The notes: generated from the letters alone by a model not told the origin. Positions 1 through 48,679 are shown, counted from the first letter of the stretch. The stretch is 64,000 nucleotides of DNA from Escherichia coli (GCF_965641715.1 NZ_OZ282453.1), one strand, 5' to 3'. Translations and numbers: made by a program.

Positions 1-42
1 AAGTGATTGGGCAGAGCCGAAACGTTTACAATCCGATAGGAG

Positions 43-1677
43 TTGGTTTTGTCGCTACATGATAAATTATTAATGCATAACTTCGCATTAGCCAATAAAA
101 AAAGCCCTGACTTCATATCTGAACTTCCTCAAATTGAACCTAAACCATACAGCAATGGACATAAAATTAAATGGATAAACCACACACTTACTAGCACTGA
201 AGTTACTCCGCCTGATAACCTGATTAAAATATGCATATTGATTGAGTCAGGGGAAATTGCTATAACATCAGTAAGTGATATTGCCAATTTACTTGGAGTT
301 CCTGCTGGCCAATTACTTTATATACTATATCGTAAAAAAGATAATTATCGTACTTTTGAAATAGAAAAGAAGAATGGTAAAAAAAGAGTCATTAATGCTC
401 CTTGTGGCGGTCTATCGATACTCCAAACGAGACTAAAGCCCGTTCTTGAATATTTCTACAGGCCAAAGAAATCTGCTCATGGTTTTATAAAAGGAAAGAG
501 CATCATTACTAATGCTGGGATGCATATTAAAAAAAAATTTGTCGTAAACATTGACCTAGAAAACTATTTCGAATCAATAAGTTTTGCTAGGGTTTATGGA
601 ATATTTAAAAGTAAACCTTTTAATTTTTCTCATCCAGCAGCTACTGTTTTAGCTCAGTTATGTACTCACAATGGAAAATTACCTCAAGGTGCGTGTACAT
701 CGCCAATATTAGCAAATATTGCATCAGCTTCTCTAGACAAACAGCTCACCCAATTTGCAGGAAGAAAAAAAATATCTTATTCTAGGTATGCTGACGACAT
801 AACTTTTTCTTTCAATCAGAGAAATATTGATATAATCAAAAAAAACGACGACGGAAGTTATAGTCTTAGTGAAACTATAGACAATATTATTTCAAAAAAT
901 GGCTTTAAAATAAATTATGATAAATTTAGAGTTCAAACCAGAAATACAAGACAAAGTGTTACTGGCTTAGTGGTTAATGATAAAGTTAACATTAACAGAA
1001 GATATATAAGAATTACACGTTCAATGATTCATAGATGGACAGATGATAAGCTAAAGTATGCACTTCTCTTTGCTACAGAAAAAGGATATCAGGCAAAGGA
1101 TAATAACCACGCAATTCAAATTTTCCGAAATCATATTTATGGAAGACTTAGCTTTATAAAAATGGTTAGAGGGAAAGACTATCCAGGATATTTAAAACTG
1201 ATGTCATACATGAGTCATAACGATCCATTAAAAACCCAAGAAGGATTGCGAGCAATGAAAGAAACAGAAAACTTTGATGTTTTTATATGCCATGCAAGCG
1301 AAGACAAAAAAGACATTGCAATTCCAATATATGACGAGTTAACTAAACTTAAAATTTCAGCCTTCATAGATCATGTTGAGATAAAATGGGGCGACTCCTT
1401 AATTGAGAAAATAAATGCAGCACTAGTTAAATCAAAATATGTCATCGCTATTTTATCTGCTAATTCAGTCAATAAGGAATGGCCTCAAAAAGAATTAAGA
1501 GCAGTTTTAGCCAGCGAAATATCGAGTGGCGACGTAAAACTTTTGACCCTATTAAAAAAAGAAGACAAGGAGGTCGTAAACCTATCATTACCTTTACTTA
1601 GTGATAAGTTTTATATGGTCTATGATAATAATCCTGAAGTAGTCGCCAACAATATTAAATCACTCTTACAACGATAA
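43..1677 (+). CDS. Reverse transcriptase fused to C-terminal TIR domain (retron/defence-type RT); start ambiguous (TTG 43, TTG 49 after AGGAG, or ATG 73)
   Basis: RT motifs in translation: FVVNIDLENYF, LPQGACTSPILANI, SRYADDITFS (YADD); C-terminal FDVFICHASEDKKDIAIPIYDEL...ILSANSVNKEWPQKEL resembles TIR; in-frame stop at 37-39 limits the 5' extension. Confidence 0.85.
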   Translation: MVLSLHDKLLMHNFALANKKSPDFISELPQIEPKPYSNGHKIKWINHTLTSTEVTPPDNLIKICILIESGEIAITSVSDIANLLGVPAGQLLYILYRKKDNYRTFEIEKKNGKKRVINAPCGGLSILQTRLKPVLEYFYRPKKSAHGFIKGKSIITNAGMHIKKKFVVNIDLENYFESISFARVYGIFKSKPFNFSHPAATVLAQLCTHNGKLPQGACTSPILANIASASLDKQLTQFAGRKKISYSRYADDITFSFNQRNIDIIKKNDDGSYSLSETIDNIISKNGFKINYDKFRVQTRNTRQSVTGLVVNDKVNINRRYIRITRSMIHRWTDDKLKYALLFATEKGYQAKDNNHAIQIFRNHIYGRLSFIKMVRGKDYPGYLKLMSYMSHNDPLKTQEGLRAMKETENFDVFICHASEDKKDIAIPIYDELTKLKISAFIDHVEIKWGDSLIEKINAALVKSKYVIAILSANSVNKEWPQKELRAVLASEISSGDVKLLTLLKKEDKEVVNLSLPLLSDKFYMVYDNNPEVVANNIKSLLQR

Positions 1678-2121
1678 TTCTCTCACAAAAGCAAATGTGC
1701 AGATTGATGCGTATTAAGTATTAACCTGCACATACAAAAAATTAATAAAATAATATATTTTTCATAACCTGCAGGTAACAATAATATGTGTCGTAACGAA
1801 TAGTTGGATAACCTCTATACCCTATTAACCAACCAATTAACTCTATGTAATCTCGCAGCCTCAAAACCCGACTATTGTTCTCTTAACAGTCAGTTCACGT
1901 TCCATTTCGGCCTGAGCCCCATAACATGGAAGAAAAAACGCCCCCAGTCAGTCCAGCTTTCAGACAATCAGTGTGTCACCTGCCGATAATATTCTGAGTA
2001 GTTTTTTCAGCCCAGGCCTTTCGGACTTTGTACCACTGATTTTATCTTCAAAATCAGCGCGCATTCTTCGTAGTCCAGCAAACTCTTGTATATGACGTTA
2101 TTATGGCTACAGCAGTAACGA

Positions 2122-2208
2122 TTATTCCATAACAGGTACTGTAGGCCACTCAATATCCGGTGCTACTGATGTATCAACACGGTTCAGCAACACCCGATAC
2201 TTTTTCCA
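2122..2208 (-). pseudogene. tfa: Tail fibre assembly protein (tfa) C-terminal remnant, about 28 codons
   Basis: Minus-strand translation [28 protein letters not shown] matches the recalled lambda Tfa C-terminus; frame is closed by a stop immediately upstream. Confidence 0.6.
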
Positions 2209-2326
2209 GGTTGTTACCAGACTCACATTCGTTCATTAATATGTCCTGTGATTTGCGTGCGGTGAGGTAGCCTTTTCCCAACCTCACCATCATCCGGCAA
2301 TTTGTATTTATCACAAACGGCCTGTA

Positions 2327-4729
2327 TCAGTTGTCTGTTGCACCAACCATACCCGCAAATTTGAGCCATTGTCCTGATGGACTTCTGTTACCGCGGTAGT
2401 GATAAACAAGGATTGCATTTGTTACTCCACCATAGTCAGCTTTATGTGATGTGGTTAAGCGAATTGTATAATCACCATCGGGCAGGTTAAAAACTTCAAT
2501 TACAGTCCCTGCTAATTCAACCGCTCCAAACCCCGTTATATTGTTGATGCTGCCCGCATTGAATCCCATCATATCGCCAAAACCAATCCAGTACTTTTTG
2601 CTGAACGCACCATTTGACCTCAGGTGGTTAATAAATGTGGACATACTCATGCCCATTTCGCCGCCAGTTATGGCTGATGTACGTACCGAAATACTTGGCA
2701 GAGCACTACTCTTCACATAAGAGCTCAGAAGATTTATGACTTCTGTTTTCGTATAAGCATTAACGTTAGCCGCAGTCAACGTTATATCCGCAGTGCCATC
2801 AAACTTCACACCAGCAATTTCCCTTGCAGTCTGCAATTTCGTGGCACTGGCTGCGTTACCCGTTGTATCCTGATTGCCTGCCGCATTCACCCCCGGGATC
2901 AAATCTTTTACTGTATAAATCTGCGCCCAGTCCGACTCAAACCCATACTCATCCCGTGAGGAACGATAAAACAGCCCACCATTTTTATAATTGGCCCTGA
3001 TTTGCAACGTCCGGCAACTTCCACCCCCTGTATAGAAGTTTGCAACAATATAGCTGCTGCCTGTCCGGGTGACATTGTATGCACCAGATTTGGCATTCCA
3101 CGGAACGCCTCCCTCTGACTCTGCGTGCACACCGGACGATCCAAGAGCAAAAGCAGAGACATCTGCAGCGGACAGCCTGATGTCTGATTTCAATGCCTTA
3201 CCATTCACCTTACGACCAGATGGAACCCGGTCATTTGCATTATCATTCACCGCTTTCACCGCCATTGGTGTTGCCGCCAGCGATTCACTGTCACTGTCCG
3301 TGGCACTGCTGAGCTGTACCACCCCCTTTCTCGTCGTGCTCGCATCCTCTAGCGCCACGGCAGATGCAATATCCTCTGCCCGTTTTGCTGCTGTCTCGGC
3401 ACGCGTTGCTGCAGATTCCGACGTACTTTTGCTCTGAGCTGCCGCTGTCGCACTACCAGCTGCCTCTGTCGCCTTCGTGGATGCCGTCGTGGCACTGACC
3501 TTCGCCTCTGACGCCTGTCTTACCGCCTCATCTTTTGAAGCAGACGCCGATGATGCTGATGACGCCGCCGAACTGGCGGACGATGCGGCTGCCGTTTCTG
3601 AGGCTCCTGCGCGGGTTTCCGACGCTTTCGCATTCGTCTCAGATGTCTTCGCTGCGGAAGCAGAACTCGCAGCTGCAGTGGCCTGTTCAGTGGCTTCGCC
3701 AGCCTTCGTTGTGGCTGTTGAAGCGGACGATGCAGCGCTTTCTGCCGATTTTCCGGCGGCAGCGGCACTGGCTACAGCCTCCCCTGCCTTCACTGATGCC
3801 TCACGGGCCGATGATGCAGCCGCGGTTTCTGAGCCTGCCGCAGCTGAGGCACTCTGTCCCGCTGCCGTTTCAGAAGACCTGGCGTTCGTCTCGGACGTTT
3901 TTGCCGCTTTCGCGGAATTGCCTGCCGCTGTTGCCGAGGAAGCTGCGCTACTGGCGCTCGAGGATGCGTTCGTTTCTGATGATTTTGCCGCCTCTTTTGA
4001 AGCCGCCGCATCCCGGGCTGAGGTGGCAGCTTCTGACGCTTTCGTAGTCGCGGTGGATGCAGAAGTGGCTGCTGATTGTTGTGACGCTGCCGCATTCGTT
4101 TCTGACGTTTTCGCGGCACTGGCACTGGTAGCTGCCGCGCTTTTTGAGGACTCTGCAGCGGCAGCACTTTTTGATGCTTCAGTGGCCTTTGTTGATGCCG
4201 TTCCTGCGCTGGAAGTCGCTGACTGAGCCGACGACGCGGCCTGTCCGGCTGACGTGCTGGCTGCGCGTGCTGAGCCTGCAGCATCAGTCGCATGGGTTGC
4301 CGCCTCACGGGCTGATGTGCTGGCATCACTGGCTGACTTCTTCGCGGCTGCCGTGTTCTGTGCCACCACGGACGCGTTACGCGCCACCTCTTCCACCATC
4401 AGCTCAAAACGGCGCAGTGCCTCCGGACGGGCATCATCCTCCGTCATGGCACCGAGAAAATCATTCAGCGTACCGGGTCGGGAATCTTCATACACTGTGA
4501 TGGTCCCGGCATGTGACGGCGGGAATCCTTCCACCAACAGAATAACGCTGTACTGACCGTACTCAACGTCCATGCTGTAACGCCCGGCTTCATCCGGATT
4601 TTCTGAGGCCAGCGTGTTCACCACCACCGTGGTACTGTTACGTTTTGCTTTCAGCTGGATTGTGCAGTTCTGTACCGGTTTTCCTGTGCCGTCTTTCAGT
4701 ACACCTGAAATCTTTACTGCCATATTCAC
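2327..4729 (-). CDS. stf: Side tail fibre protein Stf
   Basis: N-terminus MAVKISGVLKDGTGKPVQNCTIQLKA... lambda Stf-like; long Ala/Ser/Thr-rich repetitive shaft; follows lom and J. Confidence 0.9.
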   Translation of the reverse strand: MNMAVKISGVLKDGTGKPVQNCTIQLKAKRNSTTVVVNTLASENPDEAGRYSMDVEYGQYSVILLVEGFPPSHAGTITVYEDSRPGTLNDFLGAMTEDDARPEALRRFELMVEEVARNASVVAQNTAAAKKSASDASTSAREAATHATDAAGSARAASTSAGQAASSAQSATSSAGTASTKATEASKSAAAAESSKSAAATSASAAKTSETNAAASQQSAATSASTATTKASEAATSARDAAASKEAAKSSETNASSSASSAASSATAAGNSAKAAKTSETNARSSETAAGQSASAAAGSETAAASSAREASVKAGEAVASAAAAGKSAESAASSASTATTKAGEATEQATAAASSASAAKTSETNAKASETRAGASETAAASSASSAASSASSASASKDEAVRQASEAKVSATTASTKATEAAGSATAAAQSKSTSESAATRAETAAKRAEDIASAVALEDASTTRKGVVQLSSATDSDSESLAATPMAVKAVNDNANDRVPSGRKVNGKALKSDIRLSAADVSAFALGSSGVHAESEGGVPWNAKSGAYNVTRTGSSYIVANFYTGGGSCRTLQIRANYKNGGLFYRSSRDEYGFESDWAQIYTVKDLIPGVNAAGNQDTTGNAASATKLQTAREIAGVKFDGTADITLTAANVNAYTKTEVINLLSSYVKSSALPSISVRTSAITGGEMGMSMSTFINHLRSNGAFSKKYWIGFGDMMGFNAGSINNITGFGAVELAGTVIEVFNLPDGDYTIRLTTSHKADYGGVTNAILVYHYRGNRSPSGQWLKFAGMVGATDN

Positions 4730-5453: not shown

Positions 5454-8855
<3,402 letters not shown>

Positions 8856-29553: not shown

Positions 29554-30612
29554 TCATCCGTTCTGACTGACTAAATCCTGTACTTCCCTGACCGTCTGCT
29601 CAAAACGCTCAGTCTCCAGCTCAACACCAATCACACGACGTCCCTGCGCCATCGCTGCTTTGACTGTCGAACCTGACCCCATGAAGAAATCTGCAACCAG
29701 GTCTCCCGGACGGCTGCTTGCGCTGATTATCTGCTGCAACATTTCTGCCGGTTTTTCGCACGGGTGCTTCCCGGGATAGTACTGCACCGGTTTATGCGTC
29801 CACACATCGGTGTACGGCACCTGCACAGTCACACCGAAATACCGCCGCAAATTTTTATATTCACTCAGCAGTTCCGTATACTGCCGGTTCAGTTCACTGT
29901 ATGTGCTGACCAGTTGGTAATGTGGCTTTTCCAGTTCTCCGCACTGGTGCTTCTCTTCTGCCACTCGGGCAAACAGTGCCTGTAATTTCAGATAATCGCT
30001 TTCATTCGGTAGCTGCCACTGACTGGCACTGAACCAGTGCGACACCATGTTTTTCTTTCCTGTAGCATCCACAATCTGTTTTGCCGTAATCCCCAGGGCC
30101 GCACGCGCATCACAAAAGTAAGAAATCAGCGGGGCCATCACATGCTGTTTCAGAGCCCTGCCCTTTGCCGCATAGCCATCATTTTTTAGCTGATATGGCC
30201 CCTGATAATGTCCGGCAAACAGAATGCGCTCTGTTGCCGGAAAATACGCCCGCAGGCTTTCCTTGTTGCACCCGTTCCAACGTCCGGACGGCTTCGCCCA
30301 GATGATATGGTTAAGCACGTTGAAACGTTCACGCATCATGATCTCAATATCAGATGCCAGGCGATGTCCACAGAACAGGTAAAGGCTTCCGGCAGGTTTC
30401 AACACCCGCCAGAACTGGGCCAGACAGTGGTCCAGCCACTTAAGGTAACCTTCGTCCCCTTTCCACTGATTGTCCCAGCCGTTGGGTTTCACCTTGAAGT
30501 ACGGCGGATCGGTAACAATCAGGTCAATGGAATCATCAGGCAGGGACTGAATAAAATGCAGGCAATCAGCGTTGATCAAATCAACACTGTTTATTTTTAC
30601 AGTATTTTTCAT
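29554..30612 (-). CDS. Orphan DNA N6-adenine methyltransferase (DPPY motif)
   Basis: IDLIVTDPPYF catalytic motif and C-terminal FFMGSGST AdoMet motif; no adjacent restriction enzyme gene. Confidence 0.85.
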   Translation of the reverse strand: MKNTVKINSVDLINADCLHFIQSLPDDSIDLIVTDPPYFKVKPNGWDNQWKGDEGYLKWLDHCLAQFWRVLKPAGSLYLFCGHRLASDIEIMMRERFNVLNHIIWAKPSGRWNGCNKESLRAYFPATERILFAGHYQGPYQLKNDGYAAKGRALKQHVMAPLISYFCDARAALGITAKQIVDATGKKNMVSHWFSASQWQLPNESDYLKLQALFARVAEEKHQCGELEKPHYQLVSTYSELNRQYTELLSEYKNLRRYFGVTVQVPYTDVWTHKPVQYYPGKHPCEKPAEMLQQIISASSRPGDLVADFFMGSGSTVKAAMAQGRRVIGVELETERFEQTVREVQDLVSQNG

Positions 30613-31244: not shown

Positions 31245-32186
31245 ATGGCTACTATTGCGCAATCAAAGAAACAAAAAAAACTTAAAATTGGTTTTTACAC
31301 CAGCAGTTCTGGGACTATCCGCAGCCATTCAGTTGCTAAGCAAGCAATTGAAAATCTGTATAATACTTGCGTAACCGTTACGAATAATCATTTTGATACC
31401 ATCTATAGAAATAAAAAGTTAAAAATAGCTTTTATAAATAAAGATACAAAAGCTAAATATTTCTTCGGCTACATGTCATGCTCACGAGAAGAGTATCTCC
31501 TTCCTTATATTGGTGATGAACACTGGAATGAGCACAACATACCACTAGATGATAAAAAATACATAGTCGAAAGAACCTATTTTTTATATTATTACGATAG
31601 TGATATTTTAATATTAACTCAAAATCATCTTGGGCCGAAAGAATCGGATTTAGCTTATCTGCTTTACAGCCAGAGTGGTAATCCTGGAAATAACTTTTCA
31701 TTCCAAGCCATCTGGAAAAAAGAGAGCGTCAAAGAGCTACTTGAAACAGGAAGTACTTTGAGAAGTTGTGATATTGTCCTGGCTGCTCCCAGGAACTTTG
31801 ATGCAACAAATTACCAGCTAAATAGTTCATTTTCTAAGGAACTGGTAAATATGATGGTAGGGCTGGGTGGAACACGTCTCAAGTTAAATCTAAGGGGACG
31901 TGCATCAGGGAGAGTAAAAGTCAAAGGTTATTTATCAGATCTCGTTAAGGATGGTATTAAAGAACTCCTTGAAAAAATGCCGGGAATTGTAAAAAAAGCG
32001 GCAGTAACACAGCCCAAAAATACCGTTGAACAAAGTCTTCTTGATCAGGTACTCATTTCAGAAAAAAACATATATACCGTTAATGGTTATGGCACTGATA
32101 GTGATGTTCTGCAAGCCATGATTTCTGCTAAAATTGATAACAATGAATACCTTAAGCAATACGATATCAGCAAAAAGAAGGTATAG
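31245..32186 (+). CDS. RexA-like protein (remote homolog of lambda RexA)
   Basis: 313 aa, AT-rich; local matches to recalled lambda RexA (KIGFYTSS vs KNGFYATY; LGPKESDLAYLL vs FGPTTSDLTDFL); 3 nt upstream of the rexB-like gene. Confidence 0.6.
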   Translation: MATIAQSKKQKKLKIGFYTSSSGTIRSHSVAKQAIENLYNTCVTVTNNHFDTIYRNKKLKIAFINKDTKAKYFFGYMSCSREEYLLPYIGDEHWNEHNIPLDDKKYIVERTYFLYYYDSDILILTQNHLGPKESDLAYLLYSQSGNPGNNFSFQAIWKKESVKELLETGSTLRSCDIVLAAPRNFDATNYQLNSSFSKELVNMMVGLGGTRLKLNLRGRASGRVKVKGYLSDLVKDGIKELLEKMPGIVKKAAVTQPKNTVEQSLLDQVLISEKNIYTVNGYGTDSDVLQAMISAKIDNNEYLKQYDISKKKV

Positions 32187-32189
32187 GAT

Positions 32190-32633
32190 ATGTTATTGAA
32201 ATACTTAAGAAACCTGATTGTAAGTGTTTTTTGCACCTTGTTCCTACTGAGGTATATCCCTCAGATGGGGCATGCTGACATACTTACAGCCTCCGGGGTT
32301 ATTTCAACTGTATCCGGTATTTTATTTGGTTTTATTTTAGCCACAATATCAATTTTTAGTGCTGCTAGCGAAAACTCAAATGGAATAATAAAAGCATTAA
32401 AAAACAACAACATACTTCAAGTTATTATTGTAAATCTATTAACCGCAGGTGCATCTTTAATTACGGCATGCGTTATTGCTTTGATAGCAATGTTTGCCAA
32501 TGAAAAGACATTGTTACATGGAGAAAAAATAGAATTTATTTTAATTATCGAATCTTTATCTCTTCTTATCATTTCAGTAATAACTTTTGCCTTTACATGG
32601 AGAAAAGTAAACTGGATACTCCCCCACATTTAA
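32190..32633 (+). CDS. RexB-like 4-TM membrane protein
   Basis: 147 aa; N-terminal LIVSVFCTLFLLRYIPQ vs recalled lambda RexB VIVSICYLLFRHYIPG; multi-pass TM, similar length (lambda RexB is 144 aa). Confidence 0.65.
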   Translation: MLLKYLRNLIVSVFCTLFLLRYIPQMGHADILTASGVISTVSGILFGFILATISIFSAASENSNGIIKALKNNNILQVIIVNLLTAGASLITACVIALIAMFANEKTLLHGEKIEFILIIESLSLLIISVITFAFTWRKVNWILPHI

Positions 32634-43445: not shown

Positions 43446-46400
43446 TCACACGCTGCGCCTTCGAGAATATTCATTTAATCGCTGATAACGAACATCTTGC
43501 TCCAGTTGTGGAGCAGCTTGAACAATTTGAAGCAAGCATTGCCCCAACTCTCGAGGCCCCCAGTGTTGTTCGGCAATCACGGCATTCAGCAGGGATAGAG
43601 CGTCCGCAGGATATCGGCTGCAAATATCTGATTCTAGCAAAAGGCGAACGTCGTAGCTAAGGTGTTCGAGCGGTTGCAGCCAGTCCTGCACCACTGCCAA
43701 AGCCGCCGGAAATTCACCTCGGGCAGCAATCACCATACGAGTCAACGATTCGGATATGCGTGGGGTGGCCAAGTTGCGGGACTTTGGCCAAACCTGTTGC
43801 CAAAATGGCTGGACACGATTTTTCCAATACTCCTCGCGCTGATCGCCCGCACCTTCAAGTGCCTGGTATAACGCCTGCGCGGCTACCTCCAGACCTTCTT
43901 GTGGAAGAGCACTAATTGCCGTTCGGAACTCCTCCACGGTATATCCCTCGGTAGGGCCCAGAGCTGCATAAGTCAGGAAAATAGCGAATTGCTGCCGGTG
44001 CTCGCCAAGATCAGAATAGTGATTGGCGCTCTCCAAAAAATCTGACTTGAAAGCTATCAGCAACGGTTCATACAGGCGTGGCGACCAGAGGAAGCCTTCC
44101 CACACAGCTTTTGCTTCGACGGGATTACTCCAAGCAAACAAGGGCAATAGATACTGTTCGGTCCAAGGTCGATCTACGCGAAAAAATGCGATCAGCCGCG
44201 ACCCCAGCAACACCCGACCATGGCGGAATAGCTCTATCTGTACATTACACAATTTGGTGAAAAGTGTTTTCAATTCAACAGGAAGCAAATCATTGTCATT
44301 CGGGTTCTGTTTGAACCATAGGGTGATCAGTGATTGCGTGACATGCCCAATGGGATGATTGATCGCCGTAGAAACAGGATCATAGGTCTCAATTCCGTTT
44401 CGAATGGTGCTAGACTCTGGGCTTGTTTCTATCATCAGAACCCGACGACAAAGGGCCAGTAGAATCTCCTCGTGGCAGAGGATGGTCTTCGAAGCCTCCT
44501 CCATCCACCAAGTGACAGCGTGGGAAATCTCCTGAAGTACTGCGTCAGGCATGTCAAGCACCAACGGTGCGGCGTACCGCCACGAACGCAAAATCATCCC
44601 TGGTTCAGCCCAAGTCTGCAGAGCTTCACGCCACCGACCAACAGGCCACACATCATCTTGTGATAGTTTACGTAACGCATACAGACTGTGAAAAAAGCGC
44701 GTACGGCAAACATCACTCCAAGTGTCCTCATAGAAAGGCAGTCTTTCTGGCATAGGCTTTGCGAGCCATTGCACTAATTCCTGCCACTTACGGGGCGCAA
44801 TGTCGACATCTATACTCTCCTCGAAGCCTGGATCACCGGTTCCGCTCATCCAGTGAGAGAATTCATCACGCTCGTTGGTTGCCAGTTGCCATTTTGGGTA
44901 TGCTGTGGATATTTCCGTCAAACGTGTAGCCGCAGACTCTCCCAAAACAAGGCCCGCTCCCCTGAGCTTCTCTAGACACAACCAGACGGAATGAGCCACC
45001 AAATAATGCCACCTGTCTGCTTCCAAATTATCCTCGTACATCTCGCGCGGAGGCCCTGCCAAGATAGCAGTTTCCAGACGCTCTTGTGCAATTCCTGTCA
45101 GATGTCGTCCCTGCAAAACAAACAGTCTGAATACCTCTCGCCGAGTATCCGTGGCCCACAACCACCATGAACCGTCCTCTAACAACCAATTAACCCACCG
45201 CTCAGGTGGTATGCAGTTGTCTTGGCTTGCGGCAAACAGTGCCAGACGTTTGAAGGTGGGATATGGCAACTCAAACCAATTCTGAGCAATGCGCGAGGCC
45301 TGATCGCTGTCTTTGGCTCGAACGGCTAACCATGAATCCCGAAGTAATTCAATCAGGCTCACCCAATCGCGGAACCCCCGGTTCTGCCAGTGCGGAGTGA
45401 TGGACGGCAAATCCCAATGCGAGCGGTCGTGACGATCGTCGGACTCTCCCAACTCCCGCAACAAGTCCAGTGCATCACGCAACAACTGCTGAAAATCTTC
45501 CAACAGGTATGGCAAGGACGATTTCCATGACTCGTCAGCAAGGTCGAACAGGGTTGAACGTACGTAATCAGCAGTCAGCACCAGCTCCCAATCCACCAAT
45601 TGCTTGATTCGCAAGGGTTCATCAGTGCTGCTCGAATCGTCTTCACTATAGCGAAACGGCCGCCTCAACATAACCTTGGGAGAAAGCAACTCGCGTAACT
45701 CCAAGCGCAATGTAGTCGTCAAGCCTTCATTCTTTAAGCGGTTTTGCCAACGATACAAATCCAGGTTCTGCAATGGCGATTTCACACGACCACTAAGCAG
45801 AAGCCGCCATAAAGTAGACATAGGTGGACCAGGAATAGCCAGGGGGGAATGCAAGAGAATTTCATCTAACTCAGAAGTCTTACGCTCCCGCATCAGTGCT
45901 GCTAAGCGATCTAGTTCGCTCTCAATCAGAAACATCCAACGGTCGTGTATTTGTCCGCCGCGTTCAGCAATCCATATGATCAACCTAGGGTCGCCCAGAT
46001 AACGAACTAGCCAACGGGCTATATGGGACATTACGTCATCCCATTTGCTAGCACTGACACATCCAGAAACCAGCGACATCTGCGGGGCCAGCTCATAGGG
46101 CGCAGGACGCTGAACCAGACTGAATCGGAGTTTCGGGTCAATTTCGACATGCGGAGATACACAAAAGCGTGGCAGATCGCTGTATTTAAATCGTTCGTCC
46201 GAGAAAGCTTTCAATAACCAATCCAGCGGCGGTGCAGGATTGAGTTCCGCAAAGCGTTTTGCTGGTAAACCTGATTTATCTGACAAGGCCCACAACATCC
46301 GACCAACGAAATCGTCCTGACGAGTGCTGTCCTGCGGGCGGGCCAGAGCATGTTTGACGACTATAGCCTCTTTGCCCTGTATACCATCTCGATAAGTATC

Positions 46401-47273
46401 TGCCCAAGCGTGCAACGTTTGATGCAGCACTGAATGATCAGTGGAGCTCGCCGGTACGGTGTAAAGGATAGGAGTGACCCCTTTGGCCTCCCACTCGATG
46501 GCTTTCCGGTGCTCCTGCCCCGGCTCACACTCCCCCAGTGCCCATACTTGTGGTGTGACTTCACCGAGCCTCCGATCTGCTGCAAGCGCATCCATCATGT
46601 AGCGCAGTACCGGGTCGTTGATGCTGTAGCCAACGAAGCAGACCACATAGTTACGAAATAACTCACTCACAAAGCGAGCTGCCCAACGCTCAGTGAGATA
46701 AGCCAAGCCAAAGTCACCGCTGGTAACAACCAGACGATTCAGGGCAGTATCATCCGCCTTTTCCGGTAACAGCCCATGCAGGTATACAAGTCCATCCCAG
46801 CGGCTGTTTTTTGGAATTGGCAGCATCGGCGCTACATAGGCCTGAAAAGCCTGGCCTGTACGTTTAGCTGCCACATGAAAGAGACGGTCAAAGTTGGTAG
46901 TGACCAATCGAAGGGCACCCTCGCGGCTACGGGCTAAACGTAACAGCGCCGCCTGAGTATCAATAGCGCCCCTACGACGGAGCTTTGGCTTAAGGGCTTT
47001 TTCCAACGCGCGTCGGACGGCTATACGCTGCCCTGGTAAGCGCCGTTCCAGCAAATCTAATGTGCCGTCAAATTGCCCACGCTCGAAAACCTCACGCTCA
47101 ATTTCTGAAAGTGTTGTTCCGTTCCTCTGGTAAATTAGTTCTACCAACCCTTTGAAACCAGGTAAACCAGCAGGGTAGGAAATGCCTGCTCCACAGAAGA
47201 ACACAACGCGCCCTTCCTCGTGCGCCTGCAAAAGCTCATCAGGAATATCAGGGCCGTTGGTAATGAATTGCAT
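43446..47273 (-). CDS. SIR2-domain protein, 1275 aa (defence-associated sirtuin-like; N-terminal SIR2 NADase domain + large C-terminal region)
   Basis: N-terminal VVFFCGAGISYPAGLPGF (GAGIS), LVTTNFDRLF and LVYLHGLL motifs; no P-loop seen; AGGAGG RBS. Confidence 0.8.
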   Translation of the reverse strand: MQFITNGPDIPDELLQAHEEGRVVFFCGAGISYPAGLPGFKGLVELIYQRNGTTLSEIEREVFERGQFDGTLDLLERRLPGQRIAVRRALEKALKPKLRRRGAIDTQAALLRLARSREGALRLVTTNFDRLFHVAAKRTGQAFQAYVAPMLPIPKNSRWDGLVYLHGLLPEKADDTALNRLVVTSGDFGLAYLTERWAARFVSELFRNYVVCFVGYSINDPVLRYMMDALAADRRLGEVTPQVWALGECEPGQEHRKAIEWEAKGVTPILYTVPASSTDHSVLHQTLHAWADTYRDGIQGKEAIVVKHALARPQDSTRQDDFVGRMLWALSDKSGLPAKRFAELNPAPPLDWLLKAFSDERFKYSDLPRFCVSPHVEIDPKLRFSLVQRPAPYELAPQMSLVSGCVSASKWDDVMSHIARWLVRYLGDPRLIIWIAERGGQIHDRWMFLIESELDRLAALMRERKTSELDEILLHSPLAIPGPPMSTLWRLLLSGRVKSPLQNLDLYRWQNRLKNEGLTTTLRLELRELLSPKVMLRRPFRYSEDDSSSTDEPLRIKQLVDWELVLTADYVRSTLFDLADESWKSSLPYLLEDFQQLLRDALDLLRELGESDDRHDRSHWDLPSITPHWQNRGFRDWVSLIELLRDSWLAVRAKDSDQASRIAQNWFELPYPTFKRLALFAASQDNCIPPERWVNWLLEDGSWWLWATDTRREVFRLFVLQGRHLTGIAQERLETAILAGPPREMYEDNLEADRWHYLVAHSVWLCLEKLRGAGLVLGESAATRLTEISTAYPKWQLATNERDEFSHWMSGTGDPGFEESIDVDIAPRKWQELVQWLAKPMPERLPFYEDTWSDVCRTRFFHSLYALRKLSQDDVWPVGRWREALQTWAEPGMILRSWRYAAPLVLDMPDAVLQEISHAVTWWMEEASKTILCHEEILLALCRRVLMIETSPESSTIRNGIETYDPVSTAINHPIGHVTQSLITLWFKQNPNDNDLLPVELKTLFTKLCNVQIELFRHGRVLLGSRLIAFFRVDRPWTEQYLLPLFAWSNPVEAKAVWEGFLWSPRLYEPLLIAFKSDFLESANHYSDLGEHRQQFAIFLTYAALGPTEGYTVEEFRTAISALPQEGLEVAAQALYQALEGAGDQREEYWKNRVQPFWQQVWPKSRNLATPRISESLTRMVIAARGEFPAALAVVQDWLQPLEHLSYDVRLLLESDICSRYPADALSLLNAVIAEQHWGPRELGQCLLQIVQAAPQLEQDVRYQRLNEYSRRRSV

Positions 47274-47455: not shown

Positions 47456-48679
47456 TCATTTCGAGCCTGAACGAGTACAAGTAACAATCGATTCAACTCT
47501 CTCCCACCATGCCTGGTAGGCTTTACGCTGTTCTTCTAGATAATCACTCTTGTCATAAACTTGCCATACACCTGGCAGTTTATGACCGAGCATTATTTCA
47601 GCAATATGAGGCGCAGTAAGATCAGAAAAGTTTGTTCGTGCTGTTCGTCTCAAATCATGAAGAGACCAATGAGGAAATTGATACCCCAAACGCCGCCATG
47701 CGTACTGCATTAAATTGTAAGGCAGCGACTGCAATGATGTCCGACCAACTGGTTCCCTGCTTCCTTCCTTAGTAAAAAGCATATCGGAACCGTTGTTCAT
47801 AGAGATAACGTATTTTATAAGCTCTTCAACCGGTTCAATAATGGGCCGCTTTAGCGGTTTGCCTGTTATATCCCCTGTCTTATGTCGTTCTGGTGGTACA
47901 GTCCATATTTTATTAATGAAATCAAAATCGTCCACCTTGGCAGTAATTAGCTCTGAACTACGGCAACCAAAATGCAGCAATAGTTTAATGAAGGCCCGGT
48001 ATTTAGGAACCATTCGAGAACCATCGATCGCAGCATAAAGGATTTTAATTTCATCATGTGTCAGAAACCGTTTCTTCTGACCTTTACGGATATCCATATC
48101 TTTACCCGTGATATCCGACAGCGGGCGAGTTTCAATGAGCTTTCTCTTATACGCCCAGACATGGGCCTGCTTTGCGTTAATTAGCAATCGGTCTGCTATT
48201 GCTGGAGTCTTAGTGCTAAGAGGCTCCAGGACTTCTAACCAATCATGCAATGTAGCTGCATCGTGAGGGATATTCCCGATTTTAGAGAACAGGTGCAGCT
48301 CAAACGAGCGGAGTATCTGTTCAGAACCTTTTTTATTTTTTACACAATATGCTTCATACCAAGCACGGATCACAGATTCTACCGTCATGGCTTCAGTAGC
48401 TTTACGTTTTTCTGCCAGCTTGACCAATCGTGGATTGCGGTTTGACTCGAGTTCACCACGAAGACGGATAACTTCTTCTCTGGCCTCTTTTAGTCCAGTT
48501 GCCGGGTAAGTTCCGATATCAAGACGCTCACCTTTCCCCGCCCACTGATAACGATATTGGAACACTACGCGACCTTTCGGTGATACTCTAACAGACAGAC
48601 CATCACGATCGGATTTAACCAAAACCTTATCACGTTCCTTTCCAACGACTGAACGCAACCACGCATCAGACAGCGCCAT
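47456..48679 (-). CDS. int: Tyrosine recombinase / phage integrase (P4-type)
   Basis: 407 aa; C-terminal catalytic region with HDLRRT and LGHKL...Y motifs; adjacent to host yjjG. Confidence 0.9.
   Translation of the reverse strand: MALSDAWLRSVVGKERDKVLVKSDRDGLSVRVSPKGRVVFQYRYQWAGKGERLDIGTYPATGLKEAREEVIRLRGELESNRNPRLVKLAEKRKATEAMTVESVIRAWYEAYCVKNKKGSEQILRSFELHLFSKIGNIPHDAATLHDWLEVLEPLSTKTPAIADRLLINAKQAHVWAYKRKLIETRPLSDITGKDMDIRKGQKKRFLTHDEIKILYAAIDGSRMVPKYRAFIKLLLHFGCRSSELITAKVDDFDFINKIWTVPPERHKTGDITGKPLKRPIIEPVEELIKYVISMNNGSDMLFTKEGSREPVGRTSLQSLPYNLMQYAWRRLGYQFPHWSLHDLRRTARTNFSDLTAPHIAEIMLGHKLPGVWQVYDKSDYLEEQRKAYQAWWERVESIVTCTRSGSK

Follow-up and report, generated by a model that had tools for sequence, protein, structure and literature searches.

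The window analysed here is a 64,000-nucleotide stretch of Escherichia coli DNA (GCF_965641715.1, NZ_OZ282453.1), with positions counted from its first letter. An uninterrupted open reading frame occupies positions 43 to 1677 on the plus strand near the left edge of the window and encodes 544 amino acids when read from its first TTG in an ORF scan. The earlier note, made from the sequence by inspection, had described this reading frame as a reverse transcriptase (RT) with a fused C-terminal TIR domain. The RT motifs it quoted (NIDLENYF, LPQGACTSPILANI and YADD, nucleotides 787-798) and its TIR-like segments (FDVFICHASEDKKD and SANSVNKEWPQKEL) are all found in the translation. One small correction concerns the start codon, which is likely the TTG at position 49. 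AGGAG precedes this TTG by 6 nt, the N-terminal peptide MSLHDKLL is kept in Erwinia, Providencia and Citrobacter homologues of 61-78% identity, and TTG 49 is the PGAP start both in strain EC416 and in the 542-amino-acid RefSeq protein WP_251005777.1. In other strains, PGAP places the start at the ATG at position 73. The features of the locus are compiled in Table 1.

Table 1. Features of the RT-TIR locus, in window coordinates.
Feature	Position	Strand	Basis or remark
Last 5 nt of the msd template, AAGTG	1..5	+	Homology to the Salmonella type XII RT-DNA
Invariant unpaired A between template start and a2-side stem	6..6	+	Alignment; place of the canonical 'opposing G'
UUG stem extension and a2 arm, GGGCAGAGCCGA	7..20	+	Pairs with a1, about 117-128 nt upstream of window position 1
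Shine-Dalgarno sequence, AGGAG	38..42	+	Direct sequence reading
RT-TIR coding sequence (likely start)	49..1677	+	542 aa from TTG 49; mechanical ORF starts at 43
RT domain, RVT_1	361..966	+	Pfam, residues 107-308, 2.7e-19; NAxxH (NAGMH), VTG triplet, YADD at 787-798
A9 homopolymer within the RT coding region	529..537	+	Pairwise comparison of the window with L001
Helical thumb and linker, RT to TIR	967..1278	+	AlphaFold2, long helices 309-398 (534-aa numbering), pLDDT about 86-96
TIR domain, TIR_2	1279..1569	+	Pfam, residues 413-509, 4.2e-18
Putative catalytic Glu codon, GAA	1492-1494	+	Motif W-P-Q-K-E-L
Conserved 3' hairpin, arms ATGTGCAG / CTGCACAT	1695..1733	+	Arms 1695-1702 / 1726-1733, no U-tract

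The RT-TIR gene is a type XII retron (Retron-TIR), a system that has already been described and is not new. The protein scored 671.1 bits against the NCBIfam equivalog NF042941 (Retron_TIR_antiphage; cut-off 600), covering model positions 1-463 of 464, and matched the PADLOC model RT-TIR_XII over its full length (621.5 bits, 2.5e-187). The top 25 PADLOC matches were retron RT models only, with other retron RT types ranking next after RT-TIR_XII. The retron-specific motifs SVTGL, NAGMH and YADD were found in the translation, and the residues N147/A148/H151, V296/T297/G298 and Y239-D242 were invariant among 23 homologues. In Mestre 2020 (Table 1; PMC7736814), type XII is defined by a clade 8 RT that carries TIR_2 at its C-terminus. 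The present protein has both the RVT_1 and the TIR_2 Pfam domains, with TIR_2 at residues 413-509, and its closest RT structure, that of Ec67, is also of clade 8. An identical NCBI entry, present on 105 contigs, is named 'TIR domain-containing anti-phage reverse transcriptase [Escherichia coli]'. The fused architecture, which the earlier note had left unplaced, thus matches a described type (NF042941, RT-TIR_XII).

HMM classification assigned the RT to retron type XII and not to the group II intron, DGR or DRT families. The findings that the earlier note had named as counting against its reading (an RT of group II intron or DGR class, or a C-terminal segment without a TIR profile match) therefore do not overturn it. 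A group II intron or DGR enzyme with a chance TIR-like tail is exceedingly improbable: the group II RT/maturase model TIGR04416, from which the idea draws some support, was matched only in part and at 64 bits (cut-off 300), Rfam returned no intron RNA on either strand at E values up to 10, maturase and endonuclease domains were absent, and retron RTs were far better structural matches. This candidate was rejected.

The locus was present in 82 of 5426 complete E. coli genomes, counted as those with at least 80% of window positions 1-2300. A scan of contigs yielded about 18 full-length RT-TIR loci among the matches listed, with RT-only relatives predominating. An exact-protein look-up with protein P0003 gave no match, nor did a distant blastn search of a phage genome collection. 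The gene is intact in the window. In the two closest genomes it is frameshifted because the homopolymer has eight A residues instead of nine (comparison of the window with L001; the gene is split in the annotations of H1 and H2), and in at least five other strains it is interrupted by IS4, IS1 or ISSen4. The gene is therefore often lost. These disruptions, and the fact that the adjoining recombinase and tail-fibre-assembly genes are pseudogenes, would also be expected if the window copy were itself a decaying, non-functional remnant. We consider this unlikely, as the reading frame is intact, matches the family model from position 1 to 463 of 464 with a score above the curated cut-off and encodes every catalytic residue, and the visible part of the non-coding RNA (ncRNA) is identical to the consensus.

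The profile match to TIR_2 (4.2e-18) bore out the TIR assignment of the C-terminal segment, and the TIR Glu in the motif W-P-x-K-E-L was invariant among the 23 homologues. In phmmer, the TIR domain aligned to the NAD+ hydrolase AbTIR ('kelrav' over 'yeldgl'), with the Glu of WPQKEL matched to the Glu of WTNYEL, which we take to be the catalytic residue of AbTir. The AlphaFold2 model of RT-TIR had a mean pLDDT of 84.7, and its TIR domain superposed on AbTir (7uxu_A) in Foldseek with a TMt of 0.88 and an rmsd of 1.8 A. AbTir and TcpB-type TIR NADases share the fold, 34% identity and an aligned Glu in W-x-x-x-E-L with the present domain, but they are stand-alone or otherwise fused proteins, whereas the present one is joined to an RT, with msDNA presumably controlling it. 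For the whole protein, PDB sequence searches and Foldseek gave retron Eco2/Ec67 (RT-Toprim, cryo-EM) as the nearest solved structure, followed by Ec86 and other retron RTs. NAD+ hydrolase activity of a retron TIR was not found in the literature searched, and the mechanism of retron TIRs is given as unknown in PMC11350192.

The earlier note had found no ncRNA in the 42 nt that precede the reading frame. The complete element was found by extending the sequence upstream, in near-identical genomes and homologous loci, where a1/a2 inverted repeats enclose msr and msd; its 3' end (positions 1-20) does lie inside the window. The promoter and about 120 nt of the ncRNA lie outside the window and were read from the E. 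coli genomes L001 and L002, which are 99.3-99.9% identical to the window over the overlap. The ncRNA is upstream of, and co-oriented with, the RT gene (L002 positions 5883-6020, equivalent to window -117 to 20). A perfect 10-nt inverted repeat, CGGCTCTGCC / GGCAGAGCCG, flanks about 116 nt, and its second arm is window 10-19. The a1 arm expected upstream of the window is ACGGCTCTGCC, followed by the linker TTAAAT and the msr hairpin GAGG-TTGTTTCG-CCTC. About 13 nt before a1 there is a conserved TGnTA, which resembles an extended -10 element. The part of the ncRNA that falls within the window is limited to its last 20-26 nt, comprising the start of the msd template and the a2 arm. By homology, copying into msDNA begins at window position 5 (G). 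The predicted E. coli msDNA is about 74 nt, with a template running from window position 5 to GUUAGG, 69 nt upstream of the window. With these homology-mapped limits, the window contains no more than the five template bases that are copied first, a single unpaired A and the a2 strand of the stem. As DNA, the predicted msDNA folds only weakly (-5.4 kcal/mol).

The conservation of the ncRNA was evaluated by aligning RT-TIR loci of Erwinia, Providencia, Salmonella, Edwardsiella, Citrobacter, Yersinia, Serratia, Vibrio and Pseudoalteromonas. The ncRNA is kept in 12 loci (E. coli and 11 homologous ones), with RT identity down to 45%. In the 12-bp a1/a2 outer helix, 8 of the 12 pairs have changed on both sides while 96.5% of cells remain paired, and the msr hairpin with its loop UUGUUUCG is preserved via compensatory changes. 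Standard pairs occupied 94.4% of cells, vs. 36-47% when the 3' partners were slid, and both-side changes were seen in 12 of 21 pairs, vs. 1-6 in the slid controls; none of 500 shuffles reached the observed values of pairing and covariation. A covariance model built from the alignment recovered the full element in L001 and L002 (140 bits) and matched four further viral contigs. In the window it matched nucleotides 1-26, truncated on the 5' side, at its own positions 126-151 (E=0.013). Rfam itself, searched permissively (E up to 10) on both strands over the ncRNA, the gene and the downstream region, gave no retron or intron family; its sub-threshold noise consisted of IS009 (79 bits vs. 117), CRISPR-DR6 within the gene and rox2 at the 3' hairpin. 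The msd region is too variable to align, and for this reason its stem was not called by RNAalifold.

The limits of the msDNA come from a Salmonella homologue. The type XII retron of Salmonella enterica Muenster (Mestre-1156) was included in the census of Khan et al., in which its RT-DNA was sequenced and found to be 76 nt, reading 5'-CACTTTATGCAAAC...TAAC-3', with a yield only 0.025 times that of Eco1 (bioRxiv 10.1101/2024.01.25.577267). The census ncRNA is identical at 139 of 141 nt to the Salmonella locus aligned here. The start of the Salmonella RT-DNA, 5'-CACTTTATGC, is the complement of ...GCAUAAAGUG, and this template-start motif was invariant in 16 ncRNAs. The Salmonella and E. coli elements share the a1/a2 layout, the msr loop, the template start AAAGUG and the termination GUUAG. 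They differ in the variable sequence of the msd stem and in length, 76 nt for the sequenced RT-DNA vs. 74 nt for the predicted E. coli msDNA, and the closest of the proteins aligned, P0018 of a serovar Poona record, has 67% identity. Mestre 2020 (PMC7736814) gave the type XII ncRNA family as 'nd' (not determined); the family is defined here and in the Khan census.

The ncRNA also bears on the alternative that the enzyme is one of the DRT/UG or Abi defence RTs, which are not retrons. Such an RT would need no msDNA and might, for instance, synthesise DNA without a template or from a protein primer. Such an enzyme might likewise be one large RT fusion protein in a defence setting, and there was a weak match to Drt2, with DRT and Abi-P2 structures far down the Foldseek list. 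Retron models, however, scored 250-670 bits, compared with 33.9 bits for Drt2 (cut-off 390), and no DRT model was among the top PADLOC matches. The NAxxH and VTG motifs are retron-specific, the a1/a2 stem covaries, and the RT-DNA of a homologue has been sequenced. Classification and ncRNA evidence together refute this explanation for practical purposes, and we give it very little weight.

In canonical retrons, a branching G directly follows a1 and stands opposite an unpaired G that adjoins the first template base. The corresponding sequences in Eco1 are ...CCCTTA-G-CGAG and ...CTGAC-G-TAAGGG, and its RT-DNA begins GTCAG (bioRxiv 10.1101/2024.01.25.577267). The present family branch is different. 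No conserved G was found between a1 and the msr hairpin in 16 sequences, the linker being U/C-U/A-A-A-A-U, and an invariant A occupies the branch-equivalent position as well as the opposing one. After a1 the RNA reads UUA-A-AUUUGU (CAA-A-AUGUCU in Vibrio), and on the a2 side it reads AAAGUG-A-UUG-a2. The stem is extended by UUA:UUG (CAA:UUG in Vibrio), with the U:G pair replaced by U:A in Citrobacter and by C:G in Vibrio, and the A:A opposition ends the extended a1 stem exactly at the place of the G:G of Eco1. The mapped 5' end of the Salmonella RT-DNA (CAC...) starts at the G adjoining the opposing A. The position aligned with the branch is G in the distant RT-TIR locus L062, in the type XII retron of P. 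aeruginosa (CAAG there, CAAA in Vibrio) and in Ec67, for which G15 is confirmed as the branch.

Because a homologue makes RT-DNA, the missing branching G is treated here as a variant within the family and not as a reason for exclusion from it. The A:A opposition and the mapped RT-DNA start fit priming from adenosine. We therefore raise, as a tentative reading of the alignment that we hold at less than even odds, that the type XII branch found in enterobacteria, Vibrio and Pseudoalteromonas, to which the present retron belongs, may prime its msDNA from the 2'-OH of the invariant adenosine and not from the guanosine on which all characterised retrons rely. A literature search found no retron with a non-G branch. 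In vivo 5' trimming, as seen for Ec83 and St85 and also reported for the type IX retron Kva2, could instead hide another RT-DNA start. Alternatively, the branch site could be atypical, as has been reported for the placement of the branch G in the same Retron-Kva2.

Homology to the Erwinia and Providencia copies extends from window -162 to 1742. These copies reside in different elements, one downstream of a P4-type primase and the other adjoining a P2 gpA-type gene, and the mobile unit is therefore about 1.9 kb, comprising the promoter, the ncRNA, RT-TIR and a 3' hairpin. The hairpin lies inside the conserved cassette, and its arms change in a compensatory manner (ATGTGTATA/TATACACA in Erwinia; ATATGTATAT/ATATACATAT in Providencia). 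It is called terminator-like here, and not a terminator, because a scan for intrinsic terminators downstream of the gene found none. The 8-bp inverted repeat and 10-bp palindrome that the earlier note had pointed out downstream as possible terminators or parts of an ncRNA are both present. The first is this hairpin, which has no U-tract; the second, ACCTGCAGGT at 1767-1776, is beyond the end of cassette homology, and chance alone would produce about 60 perfect palindromes of 10 bp in 64 kb (64000 x 4^-5). Neither was accepted as ncRNA, the first repeat being 3' of the gene and without a match to the ncRNA model, and the palindrome being outside the cassette.

The cassette is carried by a lambda-like prophage that is inserted between prfC and yjjG and has its integrase at 47456-48679. 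The retron is situated at the opposite prophage end, by the tail-fibre genes, and RT-TIR (plus strand) faces the tail-fibre ORF at 2327-4729 (minus strand), which upholds the convergent arrangement proposed earlier. The two are separated by the remnant of a frameshifted recombinase gene and by a tail-fibre-assembly fragment. DSR1, a second NAD+-targeting defence gene, was observed at the other end of the same prophage.

The cassette moves among lambda-like, P2-like and P4-like elements without a partner gene, which argues against a TIR that acts as a signal generator in the manner of Thoeris ThsB, its cyclic ADP-ribose isomer activating a separate effector. AbTir, the closest solved TIR, does make a cADPR isomer. 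A ThsA-type effector to complete a Thoeris pairing is nevertheless absent, since the mobile cassette consists of the ncRNA and one gene; ThcB4 (type III) scored 28 bits (cut-off 220), and PADLOC lists RT-TIR_XII as 'single gene'. Furthermore, the cloned Shigella dysenteriae Retron-TIR construct protects E. coli K-12 against T5. We regard the signal-generator explanation as improbable, slightly more so than decay of the window copy, and prefer a TIR that itself kills by NAD+ depletion.

The present cassette is closest to known RT-TIR systems. Retron-TIR of S. dysenteriae NCTC2966 (Gao 2020) has the same layout of ncRNA followed by an RT with a C-terminal TIR_2, falls in the same HMM families above threshold and comes from the same host group, and nothing of substance differs in these respects. 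Its anti-phage activity was reported by Gao 2020, as summarised in PMC7736814 and PMC7699616. Mestre 2020 (PMC7736814) states, in its summary of Gao et al., that RT-fused domains are required for activity. The TIR-Retron of E. coli (Nat Commun 2024, PMC11350192) is likewise an RT-TIR acting by abortive infection, and is likened here by architecture and phenotype. It allowed no or very few progeny in one-step growth, phages escaped it by mutations in SSB and primase-helicases, and phage SSB was weakly toxic, only in cells with TIR-Retron (PMC11350192). These data point to SSB as a weak trigger by toxicity assay, with the primase-helicase implicated only by escape mutations.

Retron-Eco2 (Ec67, type I-C1) is the nearest relative with a solved mechanism. 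It shares RT clade 8, a single RT-effector fusion and an upstream ncRNA, and its post-branch linker, G-AUUUGUUGG, resembles the present A-AUUUGUGAGG. Its effector, however, is a Toprim RNase in place of a TIR, it is triggered by the phage nuclease DenB, and its branch is the canonical G15 where the present retron has an invariant A. Eco2 assembles as a trimer, with the fused effector caged by branched msDNA until a phage nuclease degrades the msDNA and so releases the effector.

Taken together, these results lead us to interpret the locus, with a probability of roughly 0.9, as a type XII retron, a defence cassette of three parts that acts by abortive infection and forms part of the cargo of a lambda-like prophage, at its tail-fibre end. 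The earlier proposal of a single-protein, RT-triggered abortive infection system was right about RT-TIR defence but not about the single protein, as the upstream msr/msd ncRNA is needed. A promoter just upstream of the window would transcribe the msr/msd ncRNA of about 140 nt together with the RT-TIR gene. The RT domain would bind the ncRNA, prime from a 2'-OH by the a1/a2 stem and copy msd into msDNA of about 74 nt. By analogy with the fusion retron Eco2/Ec67, the msDNA-protein complex may then keep the fused TIR caged and inactive, until phage replication functions that act on single-stranded DNA disturb it. The freed TIR domains would assemble and hydrolyse NAD+, and NAD+ depletion would be the killing step that stops the infected cell before phage progeny are made. 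The last three steps (inactive complex, disturbance and NAD+ hydrolysis) are inferred from the published tests of retron-TIR systems and from Eco2.

The finding of the earlier note is real, was correctly interpreted and concerns an already known system. To genome annotation it adds nothing unusual, since a known defence system occupies a position typical of prophage cargo. Only two points go beyond this: the type XII ncRNA has been defined by comparison, and the subclade lacks the branching G. The first is of small added value and covers the promoter, a1/a2, the msr hairpin and the msDNA start and stop motifs, to which the comparative definition of the cassette adds the conserved 3' hairpin. 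As to the second, adenosine priming, if true, would loosen a rule on which pipelines for predicting retron ncRNAs, as well as the design of retron editors, rely.

Invariant adenosines occupy both the branch-equivalent and the opposing positions of the type XII ncRNA in the subclade of this retron, and the conserved branching guanosine is absent from the ncRNA of this subclade. At the other end of the cassette, the hairpin that lies 3' of the RT-TIR stop codon is kept in the Erwinia and Providencia cassette copies, where the arms contain compensatory changes. The hairpin is followed by an A-rich stretch and no U-tract. The features discussed here are collected in the table.

Features of the retron, its prophage and homologous loci (window coordinates unless stated)
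Feature	Position	Strand	Remarks
Branch-equivalent region of ncRNA	~100 nt upstream of window position 1 (5894-5906 in L002, a near-identical E. coli locus)		
Opposing adenosine	6		
A9 homopolymer run	529-537		within RT coding region
Hairpin 3' of RT-TIR stop codon	1695-1733		
Frameshifted recombinase (invertase-like) remnant and truncated tail-fibre-assembly gene	1860-2365	-	between retron and stf
Type II DNA methyltransferase gene	29554-30612	-	PADLOC MTase_II, 1.8e-155
Two-gene insert	31245-32633	+	orientation opposite to flanking late-regulatory genes
DSR1 defence-associated sirtuin	43446-47273	-	full-length, 1274-aa ORF; NCBIfam NF041818 and PADLOC Dsr1
ncRNA and RT-TIR cassette in differing mobile elements	around 2501-4135 in each of loci L083-L090 (other genera)		

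The integrity of the RT-TIR gene varied among strains. In EC416 and PEC41, the nearest two genomes at 99.9% identity, the homopolymer run is A8 instead of A9 and the gene is annotated as split; in other strains the gene is interrupted by IS4, IS1A or ISSen4. Possible reasons for the A8/A9 difference and the IS insertions are phase variation, selection against a toxic system and errors in sequencing. Between the retron and stf, the recombinase remnant, the truncated tail-fibre-assembly gene and a sub-threshold Rfam match to IS009 (79 bits vs. 117; L002 8165-8365, about window 2165-2365) look like the remains of what was once a tail-fibre inversion module.

In Erwinia, Salmonella, Citrobacter, Yersinia and Serratia, the cassette lies on the downstream side of a P4-type primase (Zn_Ribbon_Prim/Toprim_3/D5_N). 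In Providencia it adjoins a P2 gpA-like gene, and in Erwinia tasmaniensis it is close to Ogr/Psu genes. The presence of the same ncRNA and RT-TIR cassette in different mobile elements suggests that it passes between cargo hotspots, both in phages and in phage satellites.

The two-gene insert, annotated in EC416 as a DUF6731 protein and a small hypothetical protein with the Q antiterminator on one side and a DNA methyltransferase on the other, may be an uncharacterised pair of prophage cargo genes; neither protein had a match in PADLOC or NCBIfam. The EC416 annotation of the prophage places tRNA-Arg and tRNA-Ile genes, and no restriction-enzyme product, beside the corresponding methyltransferase gene.

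The DSR1 gene adjoins the integrase (47456-48679). Its product scored 2053 bits in a profile search against NF041818 (cut-off 1400) and 2729 bits against PADLOC Dsr1, and its slot in EC416 is occupied by three other genes, one of which encodes a STAS-like protein. DSR sirtuins deplete NAD+. If this holds for the DSR1 found here, both ends of this one prophage would carry an abortive-infection gene that targets NAD+.
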